Assembly (NCBI GenBank): GCA_965233585.1
Contig: CBDDTI010000746.1
Span: forward strand, 512,001 to 576,000
Reading direction: 5' to 3'
Origin: a bacterium
Lineage (GTDB): Bacteria; SAR324; NAC60-12
Length of the DNA stretch: 64,000 bases
Numbering within the stretch: position 1 is the first letter of the stretch; every line of letters begins with the position of its first letter. Under the pieces are notes generated by a model. The model was given only the letters and a program-made list of their open reading frames with translations. It was not told the origin of the DNA and searched no databases. A program made the position numbers and the translations under genes. Shown here piece after piece: positions 4,009 to 59,566 of the stretch.

Positions 4009-5057
4009 GGAACAGGTTTTTCTACTTTGACAATTCCACGAAGTAAGCGTCCAAGAATGTCTGCTCCTGTGATGATTCGTTTTTGGTCTGTCCCCCAATA
4101 TAAAATCAAATCACGGTCAATCACGTCATCTTCAGGGTGTTCAGAAACGACAGAAAGCTCACGCAATAAATCCCCAAAGCGAATGTTAGAGTTGCGAACA
4201 ATCAACGGACGGTGGCAATGGAAATAGGGATTAAACATGCCTTGATGATAAATCTGGTCTCTCAAAAAAGAATCTGCATCAAGTGCCATACAGGGTTGCC
4301 CTTGTTCCTCTACCAAAATAATCCATTTTCTGCCAGACCTTTGAATGCTTTGCAAAAATTCATCTTGTGGAGAGTCAAAGGACTCTGGAATGACTGGAAT
4401 CCCAAACTTGGTCTTGACTTGAACAATGCTGGAGGGGTCTATTTCTTCACCTTCTTGATGAATCTTTAAATCATCAAACTTTAAAAAATTTAATGCTCCA
4501 ACTCCCTCCACTTCTCCAATGTCAGAAGTTTTTGAGGTCATGTGTTTTTTAATCATCAAGCTAAAACTTTTTTCTTCTAGGTAAGCAGGTCTTTCACGAC
4601 CCAACCAAAAATCCAAAAATAATGCTGATGGTTTAGCGATGGGATAAAGCAAAATTTGATAGACTCGCACCAAAGGAGAGAACAATGACCCGATGTACAA
4701 AGAACGTCTTGAAAAATAGGCTTGGGGAATGATTTCTCCAAAAATGGTGATGCCTAATGTGGAAAGTAAAAACGCACTGACGCCTGAAAAAAGAGAGTCT
4801 AGCAGGATTGTAAGTAAGCAGTTGACAGAAACATTGCCCCAAAGCAGTGTAGTCAAAAGTAAGTGAGAGTCTTTGCGGAGTTCCAAAACCTTTTTGGCTC
4901 GGGTGTCTCCTGACTCTGCTTTGACTTCCAGATTAAGCCGTCCAAGACCAAACAACCCCAACGTTAATCCTGAAAAAACAGCAGATTGGACAAAACTTAA
5001 AACGATTCCTATCAATTTTAAAACGAAGAACGTGTCTCCATTTAGTTGTAGCATCAT
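4005..5057 (-). CDS. CNNM/DUF21 domain membrane protein
   Basis: SAVFSGLTLGL, LLTTLLWGNVSVN and IFGEIIPQA are CNNM transmembrane-domain motifs. Confidence 0.88.
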   Translation of the reverse strand: MMLQLNGDTFFVLKLIGIVLSFVQSAVFSGLTLGLFGLGRLNLEVKAESGDTRAKKVLELRKDSHLLLTTLLWGNVSVNCLLTILLDSLFSGVSAFLLSTLGITIFGEIIPQAYFSRRSLYIGSLFSPLVRVYQILLYPIAKPSALFLDFWLGRERPAYLEEKSFSLMIKKHMTSKTSDIGEVEGVGALNFLKFDDLKIHQEGEEIDPSSIVQVKTKFGIPVIPESFDSPQDEFLQSIQRSGRKWIILVEEQGQPCMALDADSFLRDQIYHQGMFNPYFHCHRPLIVRNSNIRFGDLLRELSVVSEHPEDDVIDRDLILYWGTDQKRIITGADILGRLLRGIVKVEKPVP

Positions 5058-5268
5058 GTGCGGTCAAAGATGGCAAAAGTCAGAGATTGTAACATGAATT
5101 TACAGGATATTCAGGTTAAAAAATTGAACATGGTTAGCTAAATCTAGTCTTTTGCCTGAAAGACTTTGATTGACTTGTTGACAGGGAACAAGGTTTGAAA
5201 AAAAACAAAAAGAAAGCTGAAAAATCGGAATGCTTCCAAAATCAGGTTAAAAATTGTCAAAAAAGGAC

Positions 5269-5298
5269 TTGACAAATTTTTGACGTTTCAATTAGAAT
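5269..5298 (+). promoter_or_regulatory. sigma70-type promoter for the leader peptide / rhodanese cluster
   Basis: TTGACA (5269-5274), 18 bp spacer, TAGAAT (5293-5298). Confidence 0.6.
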
Positions 5299-5353
5299 GT
5301 TCACTTTTTGAATTTTTCGCTAATCGCTAAAATATCTAACACAGAGTTCCCCA

Positions 5354-5440
5354 ATGAGTGACTTGATTTTACTGTCCTTTGGTATGTCATCATCTCAACC
5401 CCTTCCTTCTGACTTCTGTTGTTGCTGTTGTTGCAGCTAA
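5354..5440 (+). CDS. Putative poly-cysteine leader peptide MSDLILLSFGMSSSQPLPSDFCCCCCCS
   Basis: ATG 5354, six consecutive TGY codons (5417-5434), TAA 5438-5440; lies between the promoter and sulfur-uptake genes. Below the ORF-track cutoff. Confidence 0.7.
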   Translation: MSDLILLSFGMSSSQPLPSDFCCCCCCS

Positions 5441-5522
5441 CATCTTCTTCTTTCAAAAAGAGTTTCTTCTGTTAGGAACTCCAAATAATCAATCTCGTAC
5501 ATCTTGATTTATTTCAAAAACG

Positions 5523-5565
5523 ATTGAGAGAACCGTTTGTTCTTGAATGGCTTGTCTCAATTTTT
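5523..5565 (+). terminator. Candidate attenuator terminator hairpin
   Basis: ATTGAGA (5523-5529) pairs with TCTCAAT (5555-5561), inner CCGTTT/GAATGG stem, then a T-rich tail. Confidence 0.4.
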
Positions 5566-5685
5566 AGGCTTTTTTCACAAAGCCAACCGACTGGGAAATG
5601 TGGTTGTTTCCCAGTTGATTTGATTCACTATCATTAATAAAAGGAGAAAAAATGATAAAAAAATTCATACAACCAGCTTTGAAAA
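5540..5685 (+). repeat. Repeated 5' leader/RBS/signal-peptide-start module, copy 1
   Basis: Core GACTGGGAAATGTGGTTGTTTCCCAGT...ACTATCATT...AAAAGGAGAAAAAATGATAAAAAAATTCATACAACC; matches the copies at ~11234 and ~12177. Confidence 0.9.
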
Positions 5686-6590
5686 TATACATGGCATGTG
5701 TATTTTCATTTTCTAGTGCCTTTGCAGTGACAACTTTTCAATCACCATTGATTGATGCACAGAGTCTGTCAAAACGTCTGGGGCAAGTCACGGTCTTGGA
5801 CATACGAAGCCAGAAAGACTACAACAGCTCGCACATTACAGGTGCGGTCAATTCCCCGTATCAAAAATGGAGGGTGAGTAGAAACGGGGTAGTAGGGCTT
5901 TTGCCTGAAGCTGACTATGTGGAAAACCTTATCCAAAAGGCAGGAATTGATGAAACACAATCGGTTGTCGTGGTCTTTGGAAATGTGAAGGGTTCAGACT
6001 TTGGAAGTGCTGCAAGGGTTTACTGGACTCTTAAAGTAGCTGGGCTGACTGACATCGCAATTCTTGACGGAGGCTTCAAAAACTGGCAAGATTCAGGCTA
6101 TGAAACTGATGCACAAGCTGTAACTCCTCAAATCTCCTCCTTTACTCTTGAGAAGTTTGACGATGCTTACTTGACTGATGCGCAAGGAGTTCAAAGCTCA
6201 CAAGGAGACCCTAATGTTGTGCTATTAGATGCAAGACCAGATGACCAATATCAAGGTTACCAGAAGCATTCTAAAGCAAAATACGGAGGCACGATTCCTG
6301 ATTCTCAACAATTTTCGCAATTCAAGGTCTTTGCAGAAGATGGGACGATTGTCAATCAAGCGACTTTGAAAAAACTTGCTCAAGGTTTAAATTTTGATGG
6401 GCAAAAAAGCATCGTGTCTTTTTGTAACACTGGACATTGGGCGGCAACGAACTGGTTTGTGTTTTCTGAACTTTTAAACTATGACGTCAAACTTTATGAT
6501 GGTTCTATGGTAGATTGGACTCATAAAAACTTGGAAGTTGCTAACCAAAAAAATAGACTTCAACTTTGGTGGCATGAGGTCAGCAATTAG
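5652..6590 (+). CDS. Exported tandem-domain rhodanese / sulfurtransferase
   Basis: Signal peptide (SSAFA); HITGAVN, AARVYWTL, LDGGFKNW, active-site CNTGHWA, LYDGSMVDW. Confidence 0.92.
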   Translation: MIKKFIQPALKIYMACVFSFSSAFAVTTFQSPLIDAQSLSKRLGQVTVLDIRSQKDYNSSHITGAVNSPYQKWRVSRNGVVGLLPEADYVENLIQKAGIDETQSVVVVFGNVKGSDFGSAARVYWTLKVAGLTDIAILDGGFKNWQDSGYETDAQAVTPQISSFTLEKFDDAYLTDAQGVQSSQGDPNVVLLDARPDDQYQGYQKHSKAKYGGTIPDSQQFSQFKVFAEDGTIVNQATLKKLAQGLNFDGQKSIVSFCNTGHWAATNWFVFSELLNYDVKLYDGSMVDWTHKNLEVANQKNRLQLWWHEVSN

Positions 6591-6593
6591 CCC

Positions 6594-7745
6594 ATGTCTG
6601 TTTTAGCCTCTCTTCAATCAGTCAAGCGACTGAACTTGTACCCGGCTTTTTTGATTCCTGCTTCACTACTGCTTTATGTGGTAGTGGTTGCAGGGGTGCG
6701 AAGCACTTTGCTTATCATCTTGGGTATGATGCTGGGGTTATTTTTTGTCCAAGGCTCTATTGGTTTTACAGTGGCTTGGAGACGTTTCATTGTCTTAAAA
6801 GACCCCAGCGGTATGTTTTTGCAGTGCGTCCTTTTGGCTGTGGGTATGTTTTTGTTCATACCGACACTTTCTTCTTATGAAAGCCTTCAGCCAGCAGTAG
6901 GACCGATTAGTGTCAGTTTACTGATTGGAGCATTTTGCTTTGGCTTTTTTATGCAAATTGCCAACGGCTGTGGTTCTGGTCTTGTGGCAAACGCAAGTAG
7001 CGGGAATCAAACAGTGTTAGCCTTTTTCTTTTTTGCAATAGGAGCGTTTTTAGGGACTTTCCACTTGTCTTGGTGGCTTTCTTTAGGCAGTCTAGGTCAG
7101 GTCATTTTGTACAAAGAAGTAGGGAGTGCTTTGACCCTGATGATACAAAGTTTTGTCCTGCTGTTACTTGCTTTCATAGTGTATTTGAGATGCAAAAACA
7201 CACCTTATGACCTTTGGAAGTATCAAGGTAGAGTCCCCTTGATTTGTGTCGCTTTGGTTGCATTGACATCTTATGCTGTTTTACTGATTAGTGCAGTGCC
7301 TTGGGGAATTGTCTATGGTTTAGGACTTTGGGTTGCTAAAATCGTACAAGCATTGGGATTCTCTGTCACTAGTCTCACGTTTTGGTCTCAAGAAGCAACT
7401 CAAGCCACATTGCAAAATAGTCTTTTGTTAGACAATACTTCACTGACAAATGTTGGTTTTATGGTGGGAATTTGGGCAGTCTCTTATCTGAACAAAGTCA
7501 AAAAGCCGTTGCAATCCACTCAAAACGAGCCAAATGATCTGGAAAGAAGAAAAAAATTATTTAATGTGATTGGTGCATTGGGAGCAGGTTATTTTTCACG
7601 GGTTGCATTTGGTTGTAATATTGGTGCATTATATGGCGGAATCATCAGCAGCAGTTTACATGGTTGGATTTGGTTTGCTGCTGCTTTTTTGGGGAGTGTC
7701 TTAGCTGTCAAAGTGAGACCTTTTTGTGGTATGAAACAGACATAA
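6594..7745 (+). CDS. YeeE/YedE family sulfur-compound (thiosulfate-type) transporter
   Basis: Polytopic membrane protein with NGCGSG and FGCNIGALYGGI..SLHGWIW motifs. Confidence 0.9.
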   Translation: MSVLASLQSVKRLNLYPAFLIPASLLLYVVVVAGVRSTLLIILGMMLGLFFVQGSIGFTVAWRRFIVLKDPSGMFLQCVLLAVGMFLFIPTLSSYESLQPAVGPISVSLLIGAFCFGFFMQIANGCGSGLVANASSGNQTVLAFFFFAIGAFLGTFHLSWWLSLGSLGQVILYKEVGSALTLMIQSFVLLLLAFIVYLRCKNTPYDLWKYQGRVPLICVALVALTSYAVLLISAVPWGIVYGLGLWVAKIVQALGFSVTSLTFWSQEATQATLQNSLLLDNTSLTNVGFMVGIWAVSYLNKVKKPLQSTQNEPNDLERRKKLFNVIGALGAGYFSRVAFGCNIGALYGGIISSSLHGWIWFAAAFLGSVLAVKVRPFCGMKQT

Positions 7746-7750
7746 GCATT

Positions 7751-7945
7751 ATGAAAGTAACGCTTTATTTGATTCCAGCAATGATCCTTGCACTGTTGCT
7801 TTGGGATTTGTTTGATACGGGTGTGAATCCTTACTTGATTCCTCCCCCTTTGGGGTGGATTCAGGATTCAAATATCAATCAAGGTGCGCATTGTAGTCTT
7901 AGTACGCCTGTCAAAAAGTCAGCTGAAGATTTTTTCTTCCGTTAA
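7751..7945 (+). pseudogene. Possible N-terminal remnant of a TauC/SsuC-type ABC permease
   Basis: MKVTLYLIPAMILALLLWDLFDTGVNPYLIPPP resembles the first helix and loop of NitT/TauT permeases, then degenerates and stops. Confidence 0.4.
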
Positions 7946-8046: not shown

Positions 8047-9183
8047 ATGAGTTTGTTCCATGGTGTAGCCACTAGTGAATTTAAAGCATTTCGGGATTCA
8101 ACATACGGGCAATGGTCAGAATCTTTTTTACAGAATCTGTATATGGTTACCCTAGATGCTCTACCATTCCTAGCACTGGGATTTTTTATCGCTGGGCTGT
8201 TAAAATCTTTTGTGCCAGATAAATGGGTGTTACGAGTTCTTGGCAATCCGTCCTCTTGGTTTTTGTCCCCCTTAAAAGGAGCCGTTTTTGGAACGCCCCT
8301 GCCCCTGTGTTCATGCAGTGTGGTTCCTGTAGTTGTGGAATTAAAAAAACAAGGGGCAAACAAAGGATCATTAGTATCGTTTCTAGTATCTGGGCCTGAA
8401 ACAGGGGCGGACAGTTTAAGCCTGTCCTATGCTTTGTTAGGACCGATTATGATGGTTGCAAGATTGTTAAGTGCCTTGGCAACCGCCATTGTAACCGCGT
8501 GGACAGTTATTGTATTGACAGGTAAGCACATGCCCACACACGATACAGAGGACGGGGCATGTTGTACCCGTTCATCCCATGCCCACACACAAGATTCTTG
8601 CCGTCATACTTCCAATGATTCGCCAAAGACTTTATGGTATCGTTTTTTAATGGGGCAACGCTGTGCGTTTACCAATTTATTAGACGATGTGTTTAAATAT
8701 ATGGTGCTAGCACTGATATTTACAGCAGTGATGCGGACATTTGTGCCGGCGACATTCTTGGGACAACATAGTTATGGGTTGTTTCCCATGGCATTGGCGG
8801 TTTTGGTGGCGTTACCTATGTATGTTTGTGCGTCTGCGGCCACGCCTATTGCCGCATGGTTAATTTTATCGGGCATATCTCCCGGGGTAGCATTGGTATT
8901 TATGCTAGCCGGTCCTGCGTCCAATATTGCAACGCTAATGGTTGTTTCCAATATGTTAGGTCGATCAGCAATGATTGTTTATGTTGTGTCCATTAGTGTA
9001 CTGTCCATACTGGCAGGGCAGGCATTAAACACACTAGAAGCCATATACAACTGGAACATTTTATCCCAAACAGGGCAAGGCTATATCTTAAACAAACAAA
9101 TCGCCCTTGCCCTGAGTATATTTATTATCCTATGTGCTATTAAACCCTTACGAAAATATATAGGCAAAACGATTTATGTGTAG
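8047..9183 (+). CDS. DUF318 / SO_0444-type metal or metalloid permease
   Basis: PLPLCSCSVVP, FLVSGPETGADS, PMYVCASAATP, LAGPASNIAT; His/Cys-rich loop ACCTRSSHAH. Confidence 0.88.
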   Translation: MSLFHGVATSEFKAFRDSTYGQWSESFLQNLYMVTLDALPFLALGFFIAGLLKSFVPDKWVLRVLGNPSSWFLSPLKGAVFGTPLPLCSCSVVPVVVELKKQGANKGSLVSFLVSGPETGADSLSLSYALLGPIMMVARLLSALATAIVTAWTVIVLTGKHMPTHDTEDGACCTRSSHAHTQDSCRHTSNDSPKTLWYRFLMGQRCAFTNLLDDVFKYMVLALIFTAVMRTFVPATFLGQHSYGLFPMALAVLVALPMYVCASAATPIAAWLILSGISPGVALVFMLAGPASNIATLMVVSNMLGRSAMIVYVVSISVLSILAGQALNTLEAIYNWNILSQTGQGYILNKQIALALSIFIILCAIKPLRKYIGKTIYV

Positions 9184-10269: not shown

Positions 10270-11226
10270 ATGATGATTCATAGTTTAGTAGATGCTTTTC
10301 AAATACTCAGAAATTCTTCCTTCAATGGAGTGCAAGGCTGTTATGCGTTTGAGGGAAGTAGCACTGGCAAGACTGTTGGGATTGGTGTGATGACTCACGG
10401 TAACGAGCCTAGCGGTCTTGCTGGCTTTCAGTACTTTCTTGAAAAGAATGTCAAACCGGAAAGCGGGAGGGTGATTTTTACATTGAACAATCTAAAAGCC
10501 GCAGAGCTTTATTTTGATGACCTTGACAAGCCATCTGCACAAAAAGAAATTTATCGCTTTCTCAATCTCAACATGAACCGATTACCTTGCAACCTAGAAC
10601 CAACAAATGATGAGTATGAAATTGCAAGGATTAAAGAGTTGTTGCCTATCTATGAAACTTTTGATTATGGCTTAGATGTTCACAGCACTCTAAACGATTC
10701 AGAACCTACAATTATCAATATCAGTGACCGCTTAGATCATGGATTGTTTAGGGGATTCCCTCCGCAAATGAAAAAAATCATCTCTAACATTGCCAACATT
10801 CAAATTGGAGTGCCTGTTTCTAAATTGTTTGGAGGTCAAAAACGAAGCATTCCCATTCTTTCAATAGAAACAGGTAGCCATGAAGAACCAACAGCTTTTG
10901 AGACAGCCGTCAGCTGTATTTTGCAATTTTGCAAAAATTGTGGTGTCCTTCCGCAAGAAGAGATGCCAGAGAAGCGAAGTTTTTATGATTATCAAACAAT
11001 CGCCTCTATTTTCTATCCCAAAGAAGATTACTTGACACCAAAAGGGTTTTTGGCATTTGAAGAATTGACTAGGAATCAGGTGCTAGGCATCAACAACCTT
11101 GACCCTCCTGTCCTTTGTCCTGTGGATTGTTTGAATCTTTTTGGAAGAAAGAGGTTGGACAAAAGCCCATCTATTGCTGAAGAGGCGTTTTTCCTGCTTG
11201 ATTTTCCTAAACTAGTTAAGTTGTAA
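10270..11226 (+). CDS. Succinylglutamate desuccinylase / aspartoacylase family metallo-hydrolase
   Basis: THGNE, NMNR, LDVHST and IETG motifs. Confidence 0.8.
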   Translation: MMIHSLVDAFQILRNSSFNGVQGCYAFEGSSTGKTVGIGVMTHGNEPSGLAGFQYFLEKNVKPESGRVIFTLNNLKAAELYFDDLDKPSAQKEIYRFLNLNMNRLPCNLEPTNDEYEIARIKELLPIYETFDYGLDVHSTLNDSEPTIINISDRLDHGLFRGFPPQMKKIISNIANIQIGVPVSKLFGGQKRSIPILSIETGSHEEPTAFETAVSCILQFCKNCGVLPQEEMPEKRSFYDYQTIASIFYPKEDYLTPKGFLAFEELTRNQVLGINNLDPPVLCPVDCLNLFGRKRLDKSPSIAEEAFFLLDFPKLVKL

Positions 11227-11233
11227 TGACTGA

Positions 11234-11378
11234 TTCTTGAATGACTTCTATAATTTGAGGCTTTTTCAAAAAAAGCCAGCTGACTGGGCAATGTGGTTGT
11301 TTCCCAGTCAATTTCATTAACTATCATTTGAAAAGGAGAAAAAAATGATAAAACAATTCATACAAGCAGTACTTAAAT
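11234..11378 (+). repeat. Repeated leader module, copy 2
   Basis: TTCTTGAATG...AGGCTTTTT..AAAGCC..GACTGGGCAATGTGGTTGTTTCCCAGTC...AAAAGGAGAAAAAAATGATAAAACAATTCATACAA. Confidence 0.9.
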
Positions 11379-12136
11379 CTTTAATGGTGTTCCTAGTTCT
11401 TGGTCTCATCTCAACTTATGCAACTGCTGAAAAATTAAACCAAAAATTGGCAGCGACTCAGGTGATTGATTTGACTCAACCCATGTATGATGGCATGCCA
11501 TATTGGCCAGGAGGAGTCCCTTTTAAAAAGGAACGTCTTGTGGATTATGACCAAGGCTACCAGCTACATCAGTTTACTATGGGAGAAAATACAGGGACAC
11601 ATGTTGATGCCCCTTCTCACTTTGTCAAAGGTCAACACACGATTGACCAAATTCCACTCAATCAGTTAGTTCTACCCATTGCTGTCATTGACGTTCAAAG
11701 ACAAGCCAGAGCCAATGCTGATTATCAACTCACTGTAGAAGAGGTCAAGAAATGGGAGAAGAAGAATGGACAGATTCCCTCTGGCAGCTTGGTTGTTTTA
11801 AATACAGGCTGGCATAAGAAGTTTAAAGACCCTAAAAGTTATGTCAATTTAGATGAAAACAATGTCATGCACTTTCCCGGGTTTTCTGCTGATTCTGCCA
11901 AACTCCTAATCAAACGAAACGTCACAGGCATTGGAATAGACACATTGAGTCTTGATTATGGAATGTCCCAAGACTTTGCAACCCATTTGCTCATGCTTCA
12001 AGCTAACAAATATCAAATAGAAAATATGGCCAATTTAGATGCGTTACCAGAGACAGGTGCCACAGCAGTGATTGGGGTCTTACCAATCAAGGAAGGCTCT
12101 CAAGCACAAGCTAGAATCCTAGCCTTTTTGCCATAA
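11345..12136 (+). CDS. Cyclase (kynurenine formamidase-like) family hydrolase with signal peptide
   Basis: IDLT, ENTGTHVDAPSH, HFPGFS, GIDTLSLD, IENMANL motifs; hydrophobic N-terminus. Confidence 0.9.
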   Translation: MIKQFIQAVLKSLMVFLVLGLISTYATAEKLNQKLAATQVIDLTQPMYDGMPYWPGGVPFKKERLVDYDQGYQLHQFTMGENTGTHVDAPSHFVKGQHTIDQIPLNQLVLPIAVIDVQRQARANADYQLTVEEVKKWEKKNGQIPSGSLVVLNTGWHKKFKDPKSYVNLDENNVMHFPGFSADSAKLLIKRNVTGIGIDTLSLDYGMSQDFATHLLMLQANKYQIENMANLDALPETGATAVIGVLPIKEGSQAQARILAFLP

Positions 12137-12176
12137 TTTTAACTTTCTCTTCTTATTTGTAAGAAAAGAAAACGTA

Positions 12177-12272
12177 GCTGGGAGATGTGGTTGTTTCCCA
12201 GTCCATTTCATTAACTATCATTTGAAAAGGAGAAAAAAATGATAAAAAAATTCATACAACCATTGCTGAAAA
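12177..12272 (+). repeat. Repeated leader module, copy 3
   Basis: GCTGGGAGATGTGGTTGTTTCCCAGTCCATTTCATTAACTATCATTTGAAAAGGAGAAAAAAATGATAAAAAAATTCATACAACC. Confidence 0.9.
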
Positions 12273-13054
12273 CACTCATCTTGTCAAAGTTGATGCTGGC
12301 AGTTTCAATGCCTGCCTTTGCTCAAAGCAAGTCTGTCATAGATGAGATTATTGAACGTGGCTCAATCCGTGTCGGCATGAGTGCCTTTGTTCCTTGGGCT
12401 TTTTTGAACAAGGAAGGGGAATATGTTGGCTTTGAAGTTGACGTTGCCAAACAGCTGGCAGAGGATTTAGGGGTAGAATTACAGCTTGTGCCAACTGCGT
12501 GGGACGGGATTATTCCTGCCCTACAAACAGGCAAGATGGATGTGATTATTGGAGGTATGAGCGTGACAACTAAACGTAATCTGAAAGTCAACTTTTCCAT
12601 TCCATACGGGGGTGGAGAATACGTCGTGGTTGCCAACATGAAAGACAAAGAGAAGTTCACATCATTGAAGCAATTCAATAGCCGCAAGATTACTCTTGCT
12701 GTCAGACGTGGAGCGATTCCTGCCATACTCGCCAAAAGATTTTTTCCCAAAGCCAAACTTCGTCAATTTGATGATGATGGAATTGCAGCACAAGAAGTCG
12801 CTAATGGCAATGCAGATGCGAGTATTGATAATTCTATGGGAGCATTAGACAGCTTGGAAAACCACAAAGGACAGGTTTATCTGGTAGAAGATGGTGCGAA
12901 TTTGGCGAAGTTGCCTGCCGCTTTTGCTTTGCGAAAAGGAGACATTGAATCCCTCAATGTCTTCAATAATTGGATTCGTATCAACCAAGCCAACGGCTTC
13001 TTGCAAGCAAGGGACGCCTACTGGTTCAAAAGCAGAGATTGGAAAGAGGAATAA
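12239..13054 (+). CDS. Polar amino-acid ABC transporter substrate-binding protein (family 3)
   Basis: Signal peptide (PAFA); GFEVDVAK, WDGIIPAL..GKMDVIIGGMSVT..R..V.FS.PY. Confidence 0.93.
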   Translation: MIKKFIQPLLKTLILSKLMLAVSMPAFAQSKSVIDEIIERGSIRVGMSAFVPWAFLNKEGEYVGFEVDVAKQLAEDLGVELQLVPTAWDGIIPALQTGKMDVIIGGMSVTTKRNLKVNFSIPYGGGEYVVVANMKDKEKFTSLKQFNSRKITLAVRRGAIPAILAKRFFPKAKLRQFDDDGIAAQEVANGNADASIDNSMGALDSLENHKGQVYLVEDGANLAKLPAAFALRKGDIESLNVFNNWIRINQANGFLQARDAYWFKSRDWKEE

Positions 13055-24889: not shown

Positions 24890-26077
24890 ATGATAGAAGT
24901 CACCATTCCCAGCCCAGGAGAATCCATTACAGAAGTATCTATCGCCTCTTGGTACAAAGCCACCGGCGATGTTGTTAAAAAAGATGAAGTCATCTGTGAA
25001 ATAGAGTCAGACAAAGCCACTTTGCCCATCTCTGCAGCAGATTCAGGAACTTTAGAGATTTTGATTGCAGAGGGAGAAGATGCCAAAGTAGGCGACGTCC
25101 TTTGCAAAATTGACACAAGCCAGTCTGACACAAAAGAGGTTGCTGACACTTCTGCTGAAACCACTGAAAGTCAACCAAGTCAAGCAGAACCACAACAACA
25201 GCAACAACCCATAGCCTCACCTGCGGCACAAAAAATCATGGCAGAAACAGGGGCTTCAGTAGAACAAGGCACAGGAAAAGATGGACGCATCACCAAACAA
25301 GATGTTCTCCAAGCCCCCAAACCTGCTGTCAGCGAGCCAACTCAAATGCCAGCGGCTCAAGCCAGCCAGCCAATGGCTGAAGCCCCCAAGCGGCAAAAGA
25401 TGTCCCGCATGCGTCAAGCTATTTCGGCAAGACTTGTCAAAGTTAAAAATGAAACGGCGATGCTGACCACTTTTAATGAACTGGACATGAGTCAAATCAT
25501 GGCATTGCGTCAACGTTACAAAGACACCTTCCAAAAAACCCACGATGTCAAGTTGGGCTTCATGTCCTTTTTTACCAAAGCCTGTGCGATGGCATTACAA
25601 AAGTTTCCTATGGTGAATGCCATGATTGACGGCAATGAATTTGTCTTGTCTGATGCGGCTCATATTGGAATTGCTGTGAGTACTCCTAAAGGTTTAGTCG
25701 TGCCTGTCCTCAAGAATGCTGACCAAATGAGTCTTGCTGAAATTGAACGAGAGATTTTGAATCTTGCCCTCAAAGCACGGGACAACAAAATTTCTATTGA
25801 CGAGATGCAAGGGGGGACTTTTTCCATTACAAATGGAGGCGTGTTTGGCTCTATGCTTTCTACACCCATTCTCAATTCCCCTCAAAGTGCCATTTTGGGA
25901 ATGCACAACATTGTAGAACGTCCCGTTGCAGTAGAGGGACAAGTCGTCATCCGTCCTGTCATGTACCTTGCTCTTTCCTATGACCACCGAGTCATTGATG
26001 GTCGCGAATCGGTCAGTTTTCTTAAAACTGTGAAGGAATCCATTGAAGACCCTGCAAGAATGTTATTGGAAGTCTAA
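24890..26077 (+). CDS. sucB: Dihydrolipoyllysine succinyltransferase (E2)
   Basis: Lipoyl domain [38 protein letters not shown]. Confidence 0.98.
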
Positions 26078-27725: not shown

Positions 27726-29618
27726 ATGCAAAAGTTCATCAATCGTTGTTTTGTTCATTTGGCATCTGTTGTCAAACCTTCTGTTGTCCAGACAGGTGTT
27801 TGCCTGCTGTGCATCACGACTCTCTTTGCCTGCAGTAGTGACGATGGTGGTGTGTCCACGGTGACCGTCACAGAAAAAGTAGTGCCACCAAGCACTCCGA
27901 GTGAAGTGAAAACGAGCGAGGTCAAAGCCAGCAGTGTCAAGGTCAGCTGGTTGCCTTCAGCAGATTCAGATGGTCAAGTGGAAGGTTATGAAGTCTCTTA
28001 CAAGACAAGTAGCGGGTCATGGACTGGCACACAAACCACCACGCAAACCAGTCTGATTGTGTCAGGATTACAGCCTGAAACCAGCTACACTTTTCGTGTT
28101 CGTGCCAAAGATGATGAGGGAGACTGGAGTCCTTACCAACAAAGCTCTGCTGTCAAGACTGCACCCAACGCACCAACTTCTCTTGCTATTTCAGGCAGAA
28201 CGCTCACCTTTGCCACCACTTCAGGCAAGAGTTACGAATGCACCACGCATGGCACAAGTGCCACTGCCGCACAAATCACAAACTGCACCAGCCCTTTTCG
28301 CTTTGGAGATGATGCCATTGCTAAAGACAACCTTTGCGTTCGTGTCAAAGCATCTGGCACTCCTGCTTCTGATTGGGCTTGTTACGCACAAGCGATTTTT
28401 AAGAAAGTCTTGACTAAACAATGGTCCAAACTGCTTGGCAGTAGCAGTTATGATGAAGGAAAAGGAGTGAGTGTGGATTCTTCAGGAAATGTGTATGTGA
28501 CAGGATACTCTGGGGGAAATTTTGATGGACACAGCCGTTCAGGAGGTTGGGACATGTTTTTAGTGAAGTATGACAGTTCAGGTAATAAGAAGTGGTCTAA
28601 ATTGCTTGGCAGTAGCAGTGATGATAGAGGAAGAGGAGTGAGTGTAGATTCTTCAGGAAATGTCTATGTGACAGGATACTCTAAGGGAAATTTTGATGGA
28701 CACACCAATTCAGGAAGAGGGGACATATTTTTAGTGAAGTATGACCCTTCAGGCAACAAAAAGTGGTCTAAACTGCTTGGCAGTAGCAGTTTTGATTATG
28801 GAAAAGGAGTGAGTGTGGATTCAGCAGGGAATGTTTACGTGACAGGATACTCTGGGGGAAATTTTGATGGACATGTCAATTCAGGAAGTTGGGACATGTT
28901 TTTAGTGAAGTATGACAGTTCAGGTAATAAGAAGTGGTCTAAATTGCTTGGTACTAGCAGTTGGGATTTAGGAGAAGGAGTGGTTGTGGATTCTGCAGGC
29001 AATGTGTATGTGACAGGATACTCTGGGGGAAATTTTGATGGACACAGCAATTCAGGAGGTTGGGACATGTTTTTAGTGAAATATGACCCTTCAGGTAATA
29101 AGAAGTGGTCTAAACTGCTTGGCAGTAGCAGAAATGATGAAGGAAGAGGAGTGAGTGTGGATTCTGCAGGCAATGTGTATGTGACAGGAGAATCTGGGGG
29201 AAATTTTGATGGACACAGCAATTCAGGAAGTGATGATATGTTTTTAGTGAAGTATGACAGTTCAGGAGTGAAGAAGTGGTCTAAACTGTTTGACAGTAGC
29301 AGTTGGGATTCAGGAAGAGGAGTGAGTGTGGATTCAGCAGGCAATGTGTATGTGACAGGAATATCTGTAGGAATATCTGAAGGAAATTTTGATGGACACA
29401 GCAATTCAGGAAGTGATGATATGTTTTTAGTGAAGTATGACAGTTCAGGTAATAAGAAGTGGTCTAAACTGCTTGGCACTACAGATTATGATAGAGGATA
29501 TGGAGTGAGTGTGGATTCAGCAGGCAATGTTTACGTCACAGGAAGCTCTTGGGGAAATTTTGATGGACATGTCAATTCAGGAGATAGGGACATGTTTTTA
29601 ATCAAGTTTGGGAGGTAG
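27726..29618 (+). CDS. Surface lipoprotein: fibronectin type III domain plus seven SBBP-type beta-propeller repeats
   Basis: Lipobox LFAC; FN3 motifs VSW...GYEV.Y...GLQPETSYTFRVRA; seven VSVDSSGNVYVTG...DMFLVKYD units. Confidence 0.9.
   Translation: MQKFINRCFVHLASVVKPSVVQTGVCLLCITTLFACSSDDGGVSTVTVTEKVVPPSTPSEVKTSEVKASSVKVSWLPSADSDGQVEGYEVSYKTSSGSWTGTQTTTQTSLIVSGLQPETSYTFRVRAKDDEGDWSPYQQSSAVKTAPNAPTSLAISGRTLTFATTSGKSYECTTHGTSATAAQITNCTSPFRFGDDAIAKDNLCVRVKASGTPASDWACYAQAIFKKVLTKQWSKLLGSSSYDEGKGVSVDSSGNVYVTGYSGGNFDGHSRSGGWDMFLVKYDSSGNKKWSKLLGSSSDDRGRGVSVDSSGNVYVTGYSKGNFDGHTNSGRGDIFLVKYDPSGNKKWSKLLGSSSFDYGKGVSVDSAGNVYVTGYSGGNFDGHVNSGSWDMFLVKYDSSGNKKWSKLLGTSSWDLGEGVVVDSAGNVYVTGYSGGNFDGHSNSGGWDMFLVKYDPSGNKKWSKLLGSSRNDEGRGVSVDSAGNVYVTGESGGNFDGHSNSGSDDMFLVKYDSSGVKKWSKLFDSSSWDSGRGVSVDSAGNVYVTGISVGISEGNFDGHSNSGSDDMFLVKYDSSGNKKWSKLLGTTDYDRGYGVSVDSAGNVYVTGSSWGNFDGHVNSGDRDMFLIKFGR
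28422..29615 (+). repeat. Seven 171-bp (57-aa) intragenic tandem repeats
   Basis: Units start at 28422, 28593, 28764, 28935, 29106, 29277 and 29460; unit 6 carries a 12-bp internal duplication. Confidence 0.95.
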
Positions 29619-37152: not shown

Positions 37153-37560
37153 ATGGTCTCATTTTTGTTAGTCCTTCACATTCTTTCTGTAACATTTGTG
37201 ATTGGCTCACTTTTCACTCAATCTTTAGTCTTGGTTTTGAGACACAAACTTGAATCTGAAGAACACATGGGCGCTGTTCAAAAGATTCAAAGAAAAGTCC
37301 ACCTGCTTCTCTTCCCCCCAAGTCTAGTGGTTGCCATCATCTCAGGACTCACTCTTGCCGTAAAAACAGGGGCTTTCACGACTGGCAAGTGGTTGCATTG
37401 GAAGCTCATCTTTGTTTTCATCTTCATCGTCTTCAGCATCATAGCAGGGGGGCAAATGAAAAAAAATCAAGTGGCTCCATTCTTCAAAATACTCATTCCT
37501 GTTGGTGTGTTGGTTCTTGCCACAGTGATTATTTACCTAGCACGAATCAAACCTTTTTAA
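37153..37560 (+). CDS. Four-helix membrane protein (CopD/HemJ/DUF2269-like)
   Basis: LHIL, WLHWKL and C-terminal KPF patterns. Confidence 0.55.
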   Translation: MVSFLLVLHILSVTFVIGSLFTQSLVLVLRHKLESEEHMGAVQKIQRKVHLLLFPPSLVVAIISGLTLAVKTGAFTTGKWLHWKLIFVFIFIVFSIIAGGQMKKNQVAPFFKILIPVGVLVLATVIIYLARIKPF

Positions 37561-45722: not shown

Positions 45723-46655
45723 ATGTTGTCTACGTTCAATGCGCTGTTTCCTATCTTTTCGCTGATTGCATTGGGTTTTGTATTTCAATTCAGACAATTT
45801 CCATCAGCTCATTTTTGGGAGAATGCAGACAAGTTGGTTTATTACGTCCTCATTCCGTCTTTTTTAGTAAAAAGGCTAGGGTTTTCACAGCAGTTAGGAC
45901 TTGATGCAACAGGCGTCACCACCATTGCAGTTGTTTCAATCCTCACTGTGTCTATCAGTCTTATGATGTTTCAAATGGTGTTCAAACGCAATGGTGCATC
46001 GTTTTCTTCTATTTATCAAGGGGCGGTAAGATTCAATGCGTACGTTGGGCTTTCTATCATTGGGGCAATGTATGGGGAGGCAGGATTGACCAGTTTTTCT
46101 GCAGTCATGGGAGGCACGATTCCTGTCATCAATCTCTTGTGTATTGGAGTTTTGAATGCCTATGCACAGGGGCAGATGTCTTTGAAAGCATTTTTGCTAC
46201 CTACGTGTAAGAACCCTTTAATCTGTGCAACGGTGATAGGGCTTTCCATACGTTACTTTCAAATTCCTGTGCCTCAACCTGTTCAAGATGTTGTGGGACT
46301 TTTAGGACAAGCGGCACTACCTTTGGGTCTAGTTTCGGTGGGTTTTGCACTTCGTTGGAAAATTAACATGTCCAAACTCACCGATGTCATTTACTCCTGT
46401 ACTTTCAAATTTGTTGTTTTGCCAATGTTTGGAGTTTTGGTAGGCATTTGGTGGCAGATGACACCCAGAGAGATAGAGTTGTTAACACTTTACCTATGCT
46501 TGCCAACCGCTGTCAGCGGTTACATTTTTGCAAAACAGCTGGGGGGAGATACAGAATTGATGTCAACCATCATCACAATTCAAACTGTTTTAGGCTTTGT
46601 CATCATTCCTCTCATGTTTCAAATTCTGCCAGTGATTGATGCGGTCAAGTTTTAA
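45723..46655 (+). CDS. AEC (auxin efflux carrier) family transporter
   Basis: VYYVLIP, RFNAYVG, NPLI, AALPLGL, PTA.S.YI.AKQLGGD. Confidence 0.9.
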   Translation: MLSTFNALFPIFSLIALGFVFQFRQFPSAHFWENADKLVYYVLIPSFLVKRLGFSQQLGLDATGVTTIAVVSILTVSISLMMFQMVFKRNGASFSSIYQGAVRFNAYVGLSIIGAMYGEAGLTSFSAVMGGTIPVINLLCIGVLNAYAQGQMSLKAFLLPTCKNPLICATVIGLSIRYFQIPVPQPVQDVVGLLGQAALPLGLVSVGFALRWKINMSKLTDVIYSCTFKFVVLPMFGVLVGIWWQMTPREIELLTLYLCLPTAVSGYIFAKQLGGDTELMSTIITIQTVLGFVIIPLMFQILPVIDAVKF

Positions 46656-46731
46656 TGTTGCTGTTTTACAAGTAATTGGTTGTTGACAGATTTTTGATTG
46701 ATGCGGTCAAGTTTTAATGTTGCTGTTTTAC
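46633..46731 (+). repeat. 37-bp perfect direct repeat (46633-46669 and 46695-46731)
   Basis: TGATTGATGCGGTCAAGTTTTAATGTTGCTGTTTTAC twice, 25 bp apart. Confidence 0.95.
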
Positions 46732-47609
46732 TTCTCCAAAGCTCCAATTCTGACTTTTCTCCTTTCATAATCAGGTTTGAGACGTTGAAACATTGCCTTA
46801 TAGCGGGCGCAAATAGTGCTGTTTTCTATTCCCAAATTATATGCAATCTTGTCGTATCCTTCTTCTGAATCAACAGCTTTACGATAAGTTGTATTTTTTT
46901 CTTCTATTTGTGAAAGGAGGATTCTCACCTGTTTAAAGAAGGAGATGGTTGCAGATTCTCCTTGAATCAAAGGTCTAATTTCTTGCTTAATCTCATTGGC
47001 ATTTTGAGAGTCTGCATTACTGGCACCGACTTCTTGAATAAGCCTTGCGATGTGACTTTCTAGTTGAGGATACTGTCTGACTAAAAAACGTTGCATCGTG
47101 TCAATGTTTCCATTTAAAACTTCCAATAACAAATCACACCTAACAGAGTTGATGAGATAGCGGTTAAATTCTTTTTCAAGTTCTGCGCGCGAACGCACGT
47201 GGACAGGAGAAAAAGAGGTGACGCCTTTTCTTTTCAAGGGTGCATCAAGAGCAAGAATTTTCCATTCTTTGTCTTGACGTTCCTTCACCTTTTTTAAAAG
47301 GTCTTCACGCTTCTTTTTTTCACGTAGCCGTTGTTGTTTTGCAATATTTTTAAGAGAGCTACTTTCATTGCGCTTCCACACCAGATCAATGAACTGGTTT
47401 TTGTCAATACTTTTGATTTTTTCCAGCCCAAGAGACCTGAGTACTGAGACAAAAGTAGAGGGGTGGATTCCCTTGGATTCTTGACAAGCCAGCATTCCTG
47501 CAAGCCATCTTGCTTCTTCTTCGGAAATTTGGAAACGTTCCATGCAACGTTTCAACACAGCTTGATTTGTTGAAACTTGCTCTTGATTGGAATGAGTGGT
47601 GTCTGTCAT
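46728..47609 (-). CDS. Hypothetical protein (helical, basic)
   Basis: 293 aa ORF in operon-like arrangement; no motif recognised. Confidence 0.7.
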   Translation of the reverse strand: MTDTTHSNQEQVSTNQAVLKRCMERFQISEEEARWLAGMLACQESKGIHPSTFVSVLRSLGLEKIKSIDKNQFIDLVWKRNESSSLKNIAKQQRLREKKKREDLLKKVKERQDKEWKILALDAPLKRKGVTSFSPVHVRSRAELEKEFNRYLINSVRCDLLLEVLNGNIDTMQRFLVRQYPQLESHIARLIQEVGASNADSQNANEIKQEIRPLIQGESATISFFKQVRILLSQIEEKNTTYRKAVDSEEGYDKIAYNLGIENSTICARYKAMFQRLKPDYERRKVRIGALEK

Positions 47610-58078: not shown

Positions 58079-59566
58079 ATGAATGAATTAGAAATAAGTT
58101 TTTTGGAAACTGTCAGGAATATCGTAATTATGAACCCTTTCAGTGATCAATATTGCCTTGTTGCCAAAAAGATTGCCAAAATTCCTGACCAAGCCAGTGC
58201 TTCTGAAGTTTTGGGTTGTGTTGCAAAAACTGCCCAGGATTGGATTGCACAAATTGAATCTAAGTACCAGTACACCCTGACGCTTTCCACTTTTGAAGAC
58301 GAAAAAAACGAGCTTTTGCATTCTCTTTTTTTGTTAGAAGGCTATGGACGATACACCAAAGGCTTTGTTAAATTGATTCAGAAACAGCTTCAAAATAACG
58401 GACAATCACAAGAAGTCAAATTTGGCAAAGAAGCCATTGCCTATTTAGAAAGTCGTGGATTTTCTTACAAAGAAGCATTGTCAAGGTTTGCTCTTTTTTA
58501 TCAGATTCACCGCGCACATTATTTCATCGGAGATTCGTTGCGTGGATGTTCCCAATCTATGCGTGAGCTTCGTTATAAGCTGTGGAGTAACATTTTTACA
58601 AATAGCATTGTCTGGTATGAAAAATACCTTTTTGGAAAGATGGAGGGGTTTTCTACCTTGTTTCTTGGCGAAACTGGCACGGGTAAAGGAGCAGCAGCAG
58701 CAGCACTGGGACAGTCTGGATACATTCCATACGACCATAAAAAACACTGCTTCTCAGAAAGTTTTACAAAAACCTTTCTTGCGACCAATCTTTCTCAATA
58801 TTCCGAACAACTCATTGAATCAGAGCTTTTTGGACACAAAAAAGGAGCATTTACTGGTGCAGTAGAGTCTTATGATGGCTTACTCGGGCAATGTAGCCCA
58901 AACGGTTCAATTTTTCTTGATGAACTGGGAGAAGTCAATATGTCTATCCAAATCAAGTTGCTTCAGGTTTTACAAGAAAGAACCTATACACCTGTGGGAA
59001 GCCACGAACACAAACGTTTTTCAGGACGCATCATTGCAGCAACTAATAAATCCCTAGCAGATTTAAGACAACAGGGAGCAATCCGAGATGATTTTTTTTA
59101 CAGGCTTTGTTCTGATGTCATCACTGTCCCACCATTACGCATGAGAATCCAAGAATCACCCCAAGAAATGGACTTGTTGATTCATATCACTTTGCAAAGA
59201 TTAACAGGTGAAGAACACCCTGAACTTTTTGGGATTGTCAAACGCGCTTTGTCTCATAACTTGCCCAAAGAATACCATTGGCCCGGTAATGTCAGGGAAC
59301 TTGAGCAGGCGGTGAGGCGTGTCTTGCTGACCAAAGAATACCTTGGGGACAGAAAATATGTTGCGGCAGATTTAAGAACAAGACTGCTCAATGATTTTGT
59401 GGAGGGCAATTTGCCTGCTAGCGAAGTGCTTGGTGCTTATTGTGCATTACTTTACGCACGTTATTCTACTTACGAAGAAGTCGCACGCCGTACAATGCTT
59501 GACCGCCGCACAGTGAAAAAATACATTGACTACTGGAAAAAACAAGTTAACACTGATACCATTTAA
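58079..59566 (+). CDS. sigma54-dependent enhancer-binding protein with unrecognised N-terminal domain
   Basis: GETGTGK, ESELFGHKKGAFTGA, FLDELGE, RDDFFYRL, WPGNVREL; C-terminal HTH YEEVARRTMLDRRTVKKY. Confidence 0.93.
   Translation: MNELEISFLETVRNIVIMNPFSDQYCLVAKKIAKIPDQASASEVLGCVAKTAQDWIAQIESKYQYTLTLSTFEDEKNELLHSLFLLEGYGRYTKGFVKLIQKQLQNNGQSQEVKFGKEAIAYLESRGFSYKEALSRFALFYQIHRAHYFIGDSLRGCSQSMRELRYKLWSNIFTNSIVWYEKYLFGKMEGFSTLFLGETGTGKGAAAAALGQSGYIPYDHKKHCFSESFTKTFLATNLSQYSEQLIESELFGHKKGAFTGAVESYDGLLGQCSPNGSIFLDELGEVNMSIQIKLLQVLQERTYTPVGSHEHKRFSGRIIAATNKSLADLRQQGAIRDDFFYRLCSDVITVPPLRMRIQESPQEMDLLIHITLQRLTGEEHPELFGIVKRALSHNLPKEYHWPGNVRELEQAVRRVLLTKEYLGDRKYVAADLRTRLLNDFVEGNLPASEVLGAYCALLYARYSTYEEVARRTMLDRRTVKKYIDYWKKQVNTDTI

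Follow-up and report, generated by a model that had tools for sequence, protein, structure and literature searches.

The 64,000-nt stretch of contig CBDDTI010000746.1 considered here (positions 512,001 to 576,000 of the forward strand; hereafter the window) carries, on its + strand, a small cluster of sulfur-uptake genes preceded by a short open reading frame (sORF) that ends in a run of cysteine codons. The frame opens with ATG and closes with TAA at 5438-5440; its codons 22-27 of 28, TGTTGTTGCTGTTGTTGC, all specify cysteine, and the run ends one codon ahead of the stop. An earlier note, made from the letters of the DNA, had proposed that this sORF is a leader peptide through which cysteine supply controls the genes behind it. 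The 28-codon ORF with six consecutive Cys codons near its stop is borne out by direct reading and by the ORF listing, and the features of the locus are collected in Table 1.

Table 1. Positions and features of the sORF, its leader RNA and the downstream cluster in the window.
Feature	Position	Strand	Basis
Sigma-70-like promoter, TTGACA-18-TAGAAT	5269-5298	+	11/12 consensus matches
28-codon leader sORF, MSDLILLSFGMSSSQPLPSDFCCCCCCS*	5354-5440	+	Direct reading and ORF listing; ATG start
Six consecutive Cys codons (TGT TGT TGC x2), proposed regulatory codons	5417-5434	+	Pattern and repeat scans
Hairpin A (Cys run, Ser codon and stop codon), -9.2 kcal/mol	5420-5442	+	RNA folding
C-rich, G-poor spacer, possible Rho entry site	5441-5521	+	17 C vs 7 G
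Post-stop pyrimidine tract UUCUUCUUUCAA ("region 2")	5445-5456	+	Pairs with 5524-5532 and 5640-5648
Hairpin B, 8 bp, -8.0 kcal/mol, within the loop of the candidate antiterminator	5460-5481	+	RNA folding
Hairpin C (5522-5562), -15.2 kcal/mol, then UUUUU 5561-5565; candidate attenuator terminator	5522-5565	+	RNA folding
Proximal leader module (hairpins D and E, linker, Shine-Dalgarno sequence AAAGGAGAA, ATG, first 8 codons MIKKFIQP)	5540-5676	+	Recurrence at two loci
Hairpin D, 6 bp	5567-5584	+	RNA folding
Hairpin E, 13 bp, -16.4 kcal/mol	5588-5617	+	RNA folding and terminator scan
Two-domain rhodanese, thiosulfate/3-mercaptopyruvate sulfurtransferase type	5652-6590	+	PF00581, two stretches
YeeE/YedE-type sulfur (thiosulfate) transporter	6594-7745	+	Sulf_transp PF04143
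64-amino acid small hydrophobic protein closing the cluster, directly after YeeE	7751-7945	+	Singleton in public protein collection

Six consecutive TGY codons are found only once in the window, both strands considered, and in 0 of 100 dinucleotide-preserving shuffles. Three runs of at least five TGY codons occur in total; the other two (25192-25206 and 58691-58705, - strand) are antisense within long + strand ORFs, so that the run in the sORF is the only intergenic one of this length. The 29 intergenic regions of the window hold 399 sORFs of 6-60 amino acids, of which 32 have at least three identical residues in a row. A run of six identical residues is present in two of the 399, the Cys sORF and a TTG-started frame of 10 codons, LFSSSSSSAS (37412-37444, +), located upstream of a MotA/ExbB-family gene (37589).

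The genes downstream of the sORF had been described as encoding an exported rhodanese and a YeeE/YedE transporter, and both assignments hold, with matches to PF00581 and PF04143, respectively. The rhodanese has the active-site motif FCNTGHW and an N-terminus that looks like a signal peptide, which points to an exported protein. YeeE is responsible for thiosulfate uptake according to published abstracts. No YeeD/TusA-like partner gene was seen adjoining YeeE, and no Pfam family matched the 64-amino acid protein that closes the cluster. Thiosulfate uptake contributes to cysteine supply, and yeeE/yeeD of E. coli respond to sulfur limitation.

The -10 box of the promoter-like sequence ends at 5298, 55 nt ahead of the ATG at 5354, and the sORF stop is separated by 211 nt from the rhodanese ATG at 5652. 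These values, together with the 11 matches to the 12 consensus positions, agree with the promoter, the 55-nt spacing and the distance of about 210 nt to the rhodanese given in the earlier note. Promoter-like sites are not enriched in the region, as 4900-5900 has two against a shuffle mean of 2.1, and the site at 5269-5298 is the only sigma-70-like one upstream of the rhodanese start within these limits. Since this sole site precedes the sORF, the operon must be transcribed through hairpins C and E. Judged from the promoter sequence, transcription probably starts near 5305, which would place a 5' untranslated region (UTR) of ~48 nt ahead of the sORF.

The 5' leader of ~345 nt is predicted to be more structured than its shuffles, with z scores of -3.6 for 5305-5660 and -4.7 for 5400-5640. 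The arms of hairpin C, at 5524-5532 (5') and 5555-5562 (3'), are called here "region 3" and "region 4", respectively. Hairpin E was flagged as terminator-like by the consensus terminator scan and has a poor U tract. Between the sORF and hairpin C, the spacer 5441-5521 has a C/G ratio in the 97th percentile among same-length + strand windows. Searching 4900-5900 against Rfam 15 with permissive thresholds gave a best match of 19.3 bits, compared with a gathering score of 35.

The pyrimidine tract begins 5 nt past the sORF stop codon, and it is complementary to two downstream elements. With the 5' arm of hairpin C it can form a candidate antiterminator of 9 bp (5448-5456 with 5524-5532; -10.5 kcal/mol). 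When all leader 20-mers are compared, the best partner of this arm is 5438-5457, which begins at the stop codon; among 9140 20-mers of the window paired with the same arm, 2.4% reach -10.8 kcal/mol and 7.7% reach -9 kcal/mol. The post-stop tract is also the best leader partner of the rhodanese ribosome-binding site (RBS), at -8.8 kcal/mol, which lies in the 2% tail. In folds of nascent RNA ending at 5552/5556, the predicted antiterminator depends on the position of the ribosome. With the ribosomal A site at 5426 the pairing probability P(5450:5530) is 0.77/0.73, with the A site at 5432 the antiterminator has P 0.89/0.80, with the ribosome at the stop codon P is 0/0, and on untranslated RNA it is 0.65/0.56. 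As modelled, this dependence follows qualitatively the logic of the trp attenuator.

In the mechanism that these features suggest, the sORF peptide would report the charging of tRNA-Cys and set the expression of the rhodanese-YeeE thiosulfate-uptake genes. Transcription would begin near 5305, and a ribosome would translate the sORF. Under ample cysteine the ribosome would reach the stop at 5438-5440, where its footprint would cover the pyrimidine tract 5 nt downstream; with the tract covered, hairpin C (5522-5562) would form and RNA polymerase would terminate in the U run 5561-5565. Under scarce cysteine the ribosome would be held in the six Cys codons, leaving 5448-5456 free to pair with 5524-5532, and hairpin C would then come too late to prevent the polymerase from reading into the operon. 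The same tract is predicted to pair with the rhodanese Shine-Dalgarno (SD) sequence in the full-length RNA, and it may thus add a translational layer like that of the mycobacterial Ms5788A leader.

The earlier reading of the locus as a cysteine-sensing attenuator stands as to position, frame (for ATG starts), promoter and gene context, and a Cys run by the stop codon before a thiosulfate sulfurtransferase matches actinobacterial leaders. From the sequence, we regard the chance that the sORF is a leader peptide sensing cysteine as evenly balanced. The intrinsic terminator/antiterminator mechanism in particular is a tentative proposal and, on the present models, a somewhat doubtful one. Both estimates allow for the case having been picked because of its match. 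The specificity lies in the combination of an amino acid with two codons, an ATG frame and a run by the stop with a promoter close to consensus on one side and sulfur-uptake genes on the other, and with a tract beside the stop that is the best partner of the next hairpin.

The proximal part of the leader is not confined to this operon. A module of ~120-140 nt recurs on the + strand at 11234-11369, before a cyclase-family gene (start 11345), and at 12117-12263, before a gene for a family-3 solute-binding protein (start 12239) whose best NCBIfam match, below cut-off, is a cystine-binding protein. Counterparts of hairpin E are found at 11281-11310 and 12175-12204, and its 17-nt core ATGTGGTTGTTTCCCAG is identical in all three copies; three such matches appeared in 0 of 100 shuffles. 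All three genes share the same signal-peptide start, with first 8 codons MIK[KQ]FIQ[PA], and their products are apparently exported. The Cys sORF precedes the first copy only, so the leader combines a proximal module common to all three genes with a distal portion of its own that carries the sORF. The recurrence suggests shared post-transcriptional or operator control of the three genes. An nhmmer profile of the module detected no fourth copy in the window, and the three copies show no significant covariation, the observed values being reached in 59 to 109 of 500 shuffles.

Several further observations concern the module. The loop of hairpin E (5601-5606, UGGUUG) and rhodanese codons 7-8 (5670-5675, CAACCA) are complementary, perfectly so in copies 1 and 3 and with a single mismatch in copy 2. 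Conservation of the first codons at the nucleotide level would be explained if this pairing formed a pseudoknot around the SD and AUG. Copy 2 includes a promoter-like sequence, ATGACT-17-TATAAT (10/12 matches; 11226-11254, +), whose -10 box falls, in the alignment, on the 3' arm of copy-1 hairpin C, and if this promoter is used, the copy-2 module would be a complete 5' UTR beginning at hairpin D. Weak matches to the preQ1-II riboswitch that end at the start codon were found at 5551-5654, 11203-11347 and 12156-12241 (+), with 17.2, 23.9 and 20.9 bits, respectively; the second was also the best Rfam 15 match at permissive thresholds in 11150-12320 (gathering score 47). They probably reflect A-rich similarity of the SD region, not membership in the family. 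The leader transcript (~5305-5565) might further be a cysteine-gated riboregulator with two outputs, in which translation of the Cys6 sORF governs whether the post-stop tract is free; the tract would act in cis on the rhodanese-YeeE operon as antiterminator and anti-SD, and the terminated leader RNA in trans on the three module mRNAs (rhodanese, 5652; cyclase-like, 11345; amino-acid-binding protein, 12239), as a small "Cys ribulon". This is a long shot.

The rhodanese has protein relatives at 69, 58 and 51% identity, and a further homolog at 52%. Genome contigs were scanned with an alignment of its 12 closest homologs; at least 581 stretches matched, 570 were confirmed and 80 were kept. All 80 rhodanese loci are at 35-44% identity, the named records among them are Pseudomonadota, and the matches listed included no close relative and not the window's own genome. 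These loci were scanned for frames of up to 80 codons with at least three TGY, the resulting list was read by eye for + strand frames within 400 nt before the rhodanese match, and 0 of 80 had a convincing Cys leader; they come from distant, G+C-rich genomes, and this negative says little. Two candidates were rejected, one at 3879 in locus L069 that has no start codon before the run, and one at 1472 in locus L051 that sits inside the coding region in a different frame. At 41% G+C, the window has genes for FlgH (L ring), FlgA, FlgF/G, an Omp85-family protein and a protein like MotA, and the FlgH L ring, flagellar and Omp85-family genes mark the host as a flagellated diderm. Its lineage is poorly sampled, the phosphoglycerate kinase having one relative at 88% and the next at ~58% (own protein excluded).

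A number of results, in part on the RNA folds and in part on the sORF itself, weigh against the attenuator. The structural evidence is in silico and from one sequence, and its controls, at roughly the 2-3% level, are only modestly significant; the Cys frame, the run and the helices likewise rest on one sequence, the loci compared being at 44% rhodanese identity or less. Hairpin C has an A-U-rich base and five U only, and the consensus terminator scan did not flag it. Both complementarities of the post-stop tract involve low-complexity purine/pyrimidine tracts, and the ribosome masks, which cover the A site +/-15 nt, are our own assumption. In equilibrium folds with these masks, hairpins C, D and E have P >= 0.97 in all four ribosome states, and a thermodynamic switch of hairpins C-E is ruled out by this insensitivity. 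In nascent folds the antiterminator reaches P <= 0.41 in every state for ends 5540-5546, and from end 5560 onward hairpin C wins in all states. Because antiterminator P is <= 0.002 once the 3' arm of hairpin C is available, the model needs kinetics. The antiterminator forms on untranslated RNA too, so superattenuation is not expected. When the ribosome sits at the first Cys codon (ends 5552/5556), the antiterminator has P 0.20/0.31, below that of untranslated RNA, and stalling there is therefore not predicted to help.

As for the sORF, its Cys run (5416-5434) is made up by a 9-nt unit repeated 2.1 times as a perfect tandem duplication, and tandem repeats of such size are common in the window, with 38 Tandem Repeats Finder (TRF) rows in 64 kb. 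The Ser x6 sORF has no functional link to the MotA-like gene behind it, so runs of six residues can appear with no function behind them, probably through expansion of repeats. The SD of the Cys sORF is at best AGAG, with a duplex of -2.4 kcal/mol, its start codon is predicted to lie in a helix (5356:5396, P 0.92 in the full-leader fold), and the source record annotates no leader ORF. The earlier note had listed the weak SD as a weakness of the proposal; the SD is indeed weak, but not specially so, as the SD duplex is no stronger than that of the sORF in 27 of 50 long ORFs of the window. In this survey, which used longest-ORF starts and a generic anti-SD motif, an SD was undetectable within 20 nt for 21 of the 50 starts, and a few genes, the three with the module among them, had a very strong one at -8.9 kcal/mol; the host seems to use SDs only for some genes.

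These properties of the sORF would equally suit a Cys frame that is a coincidence, that is, a neutral 9-nt duplication in a long structured untranslated 5' UTR, with regulation exerted through other elements, above all the hairpin E/RBS module read by a protein or small RNA. The module copies at 11234-11369 and 12117-12263 lack the sORF, so that a Cys leader is not needed for the conserved part of the leader, and exact look-up of four leader ORFs in a public protein collection found none of them. An ATG-framed Cys run by a stop before sulfur-uptake genes is nonetheless a specific coincidence, given an amino acid with two codons and the scarcity of six-residue runs among the 399 sORFs, and the tract by the stop is, within the leader, the best partner of the RBS and also of hairpin C's 5' arm, at the ~2% level in both cases. 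We consider the coincidence unlikely, though it must be taken seriously. Another frame of the repeat might be read instead. The claim that only the Cys frame is open holds for ATG starts and fails with TTG starts: the Val frame, closed by TGA 5364, reopens at TTG 5379 as a hydrophobic Val/Ala ORF of 42 amino acids, and the Leu frame, past TGA 5410, opens at TTG 5419 as an 18-amino acid ORF with LLLLLQ. Both have an SD of 0 kcal/mol, the 42-amino acid ORF had 0 matches among 1.84 billion representative proteins (E <= 0.001), and a Leu or Val leader would have no link to sulfur genes, which makes use of these frames hardly credible. Scarcely better placed is a working small peptide, co-expressed with the rhodanese, whose C-terminal Cys6 tail binds metal or carries sulfane sulfur. 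A row of six thiols would have affinity for soft metals or persulfide, and an SO_0444-family Cu/Zn efflux permease is encoded at 8047-9183. This permease is, however, a separate gene beyond the cluster, and the peptide has neither an SD nor a signal peptide whereas the rhodanese looks exported; it is absent from the annotation and from the public protein collection, it has no known relatives, and it ends 211 nt ahead of the next gene with terminator-like hairpins between. A role of this kind is very improbable.

The same cysteine sensor could also have a different output, with the stalled ribosome acting on translation, where 5445-5453 would mask the SD 5640-5648 until a ribosome lingering by the end of the sORF frees it, as at Ms5788A, or on Rho, whose entry at the spacer 5441-5521 the ribosome would block. 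In the full-leader fold the rhodanese SD pairs with 5445-5453 at P ~0.96, and the mean pairing of 5640-5648 is 0.936 vs 0.73 +/- 0.12 in shuffles, 3 of 100 of which reach it. The helix disappears once the A site has reached the last Cys codon or the stop, the spacer is rich in C and poor in G as a Rho entry site would be, and both the Ms5788A mechanism and a Rho proposal for mycobacterial cys leaders have been published (bioRxiv 10.1101/834739; PMC1262725). Yet a ribosome at the first Cys codon leaves the helix in place (P 0.89), and the helix opens equally well under a ribosome at the stop or at the last Cys codon, so the direction of regulation is not set by the folds. It also has to span ~190 nt and four hairpins, and a Rho site is not demonstrable from sequence alone. 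In other strong-SD genes, pairing at -13..-6 is 0.32-0.84, and 2 of 12 are as high (0.83, 0.84). SD masking, being only modestly above this background, was rejected as a distinctive trait, and the same figures favor a coincidental frame. An output on translation or Rho is on balance rather improbable. A separate prediction of the full-leader fold touches the same RBS: the predicted 5' end of the leader, 5309-5317 (UGAAUUUUU), pairs with rhodanese codons 3-5 at 5659-5667 (AAAAAUUCA) at P ~0.96, and this helix and the anti-SD helix would clamp the rhodanese RBS from both sides. The 5'-end helix is A-U-rich and hangs on the inferred transcription start.

If the sORF is a cysteine-sensing leader with a classical terminator/antiterminator in this sparsely sequenced flagellated diderm, ribosome-based cysteine sensing would have arisen more than once, and tRNA-Cys charging could govern sulfur uptake as well as biosynthesis with no need of CysB-type regulators. 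Unannotated sulfur regulons could then be sought by a simple rule, a Cys-run sORF ahead of rhodanese, YeeE or cys genes. Should the run be a coincidence, it would call for caution, as short tandem duplications can mimic regulatory codon runs.

Some other features of the window lie apart from the sORF locus. The 318-amino acid protein at 10270-11226 (+) has no Pfam or NCBIfam match, and its nearest ESM Atlas clusters (score 0.96-0.98) are of the AstE/AspA (succinylglutamate desuccinylase/aspartoacylase) catalytic domain, which is a lead only. A 171-nt tandem repeat of 6.9 copies with 84% matches (28422-29607, +) lies within the gene 27726-29618 for an SBBP beta-propeller lipoprotein, whose resemblance to the Leptospira LipL53 family is below cut-off. 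Two copies of TGTTGCTGT (46656-46664 and 46718-46726, +) lie 62 nt from each other in the short stretch that separates convergent genes 45723-46655 and 46728-47609.

Leader peptides with hungry codons are textbook regulators for Trp, His, Thr, Phe, Leu and Ile/Val. The cysteine counterparts described are Ms5788A and Rv0815A, polycysteine leaderless sORF attenuators of mycobacteria that work in M. smegmatis on translation (Canestrari et al. 2020; bioRxiv 10.1101/834739), and a 2026 paper cites the mycobacterial Cys leaders as leaderless translational attenuators. Ms5788A has eight Cys at its 3' end, and its operon includes the thiosulfate sulfurtransferase cysA2 (bioRxiv 10.1101/834739). Like Ms5788A, the present element is a short first ORF that ends in consecutive Cys codons (eight there, six here) with a thiosulfate sulfurtransferase operon downstream. 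In both, extensive leader structure is predicted, and the SD of the following gene finds its pairing partner at the 3' end of the sORF region. Unlike Ms5788A, it belongs to another phylum, in a diderm with a flagellar L ring and 41% G+C, and by prediction it is not leaderless, the inferred ~48-nt 5' UTR following from a -10 box that ends at 5298, an ATG at 5354 and no closer promoter-like site. Its SD partner is the post-stop tract 5445-5453 while the Cys tract folds on itself (hairpin A), the spacer is 211 nt compared with 97 nt, and terminator-like hairpins and a candidate antiterminator are present. No sequence homology is expected between the two. Two traits that define the mycobacterial leaders, a leaderless transcript and pairing of the Cys tract with the SD, are predicted to be absent here, which sets the element apart from the Ms5788A class.

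The mycobacterial cys leaders of Seliverstov et al. 2005 (PMC1262725) are without obvious terminators, and Rho was proposed for them. The element shares with them a pyrimidine-rich sequence between the leader ORF and the first gene, and differs in having a hairpin with U5 and an alternative pairing, in its lineage, and in preceding uptake genes where those leaders precede cysK/cysE/cbs. In the literature searched, which comprised papers other than subscription-only ones, with Naville and Gautheret 2010 among them, no Cys leader was found beyond Actinobacteria; this accords with the earlier remark that no example had been described in such a diderm lineage.

The tnaC leader of the E. coli tna operon is Rho-dependent; hungry codons play no part in the arrest of its ribosome, which the nascent peptide and free tryptophan bring about at the stop codon. 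As at tnaC, a ribosome waiting at the end of the ORF would keep Rho off a C-rich, unstructured entry site starting at the stop; unlike tnaC, hungry codons are proposed here, and the Rho site is a candidate from base composition. The classical attenuators of Proteobacteria (trpL, hisL, thrL, pheL, ilv/leu) have, like the present leader, a stop codon a few nt before "region 2"; they have a 2:3 antiterminator opposed to a 3:4 terminator with a U run, elements for which the present leader has candidates. The stop-to-region-2 spacing of the trp leader is like the 5-8 nt found here. The element differs from the classical attenuators in the amino acid, cysteine; in having no 1:2 hairpin that sequesters region 2, so that superattenuation is not predicted; in serving uptake and sulfur-transfer genes, not biosynthesis; and in a second hairpin module between the candidate terminator and the gene. 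In its sequence features it looks more like a classical proteobacterial attenuator with cysteine codons than like a member of the mycobacterial class.

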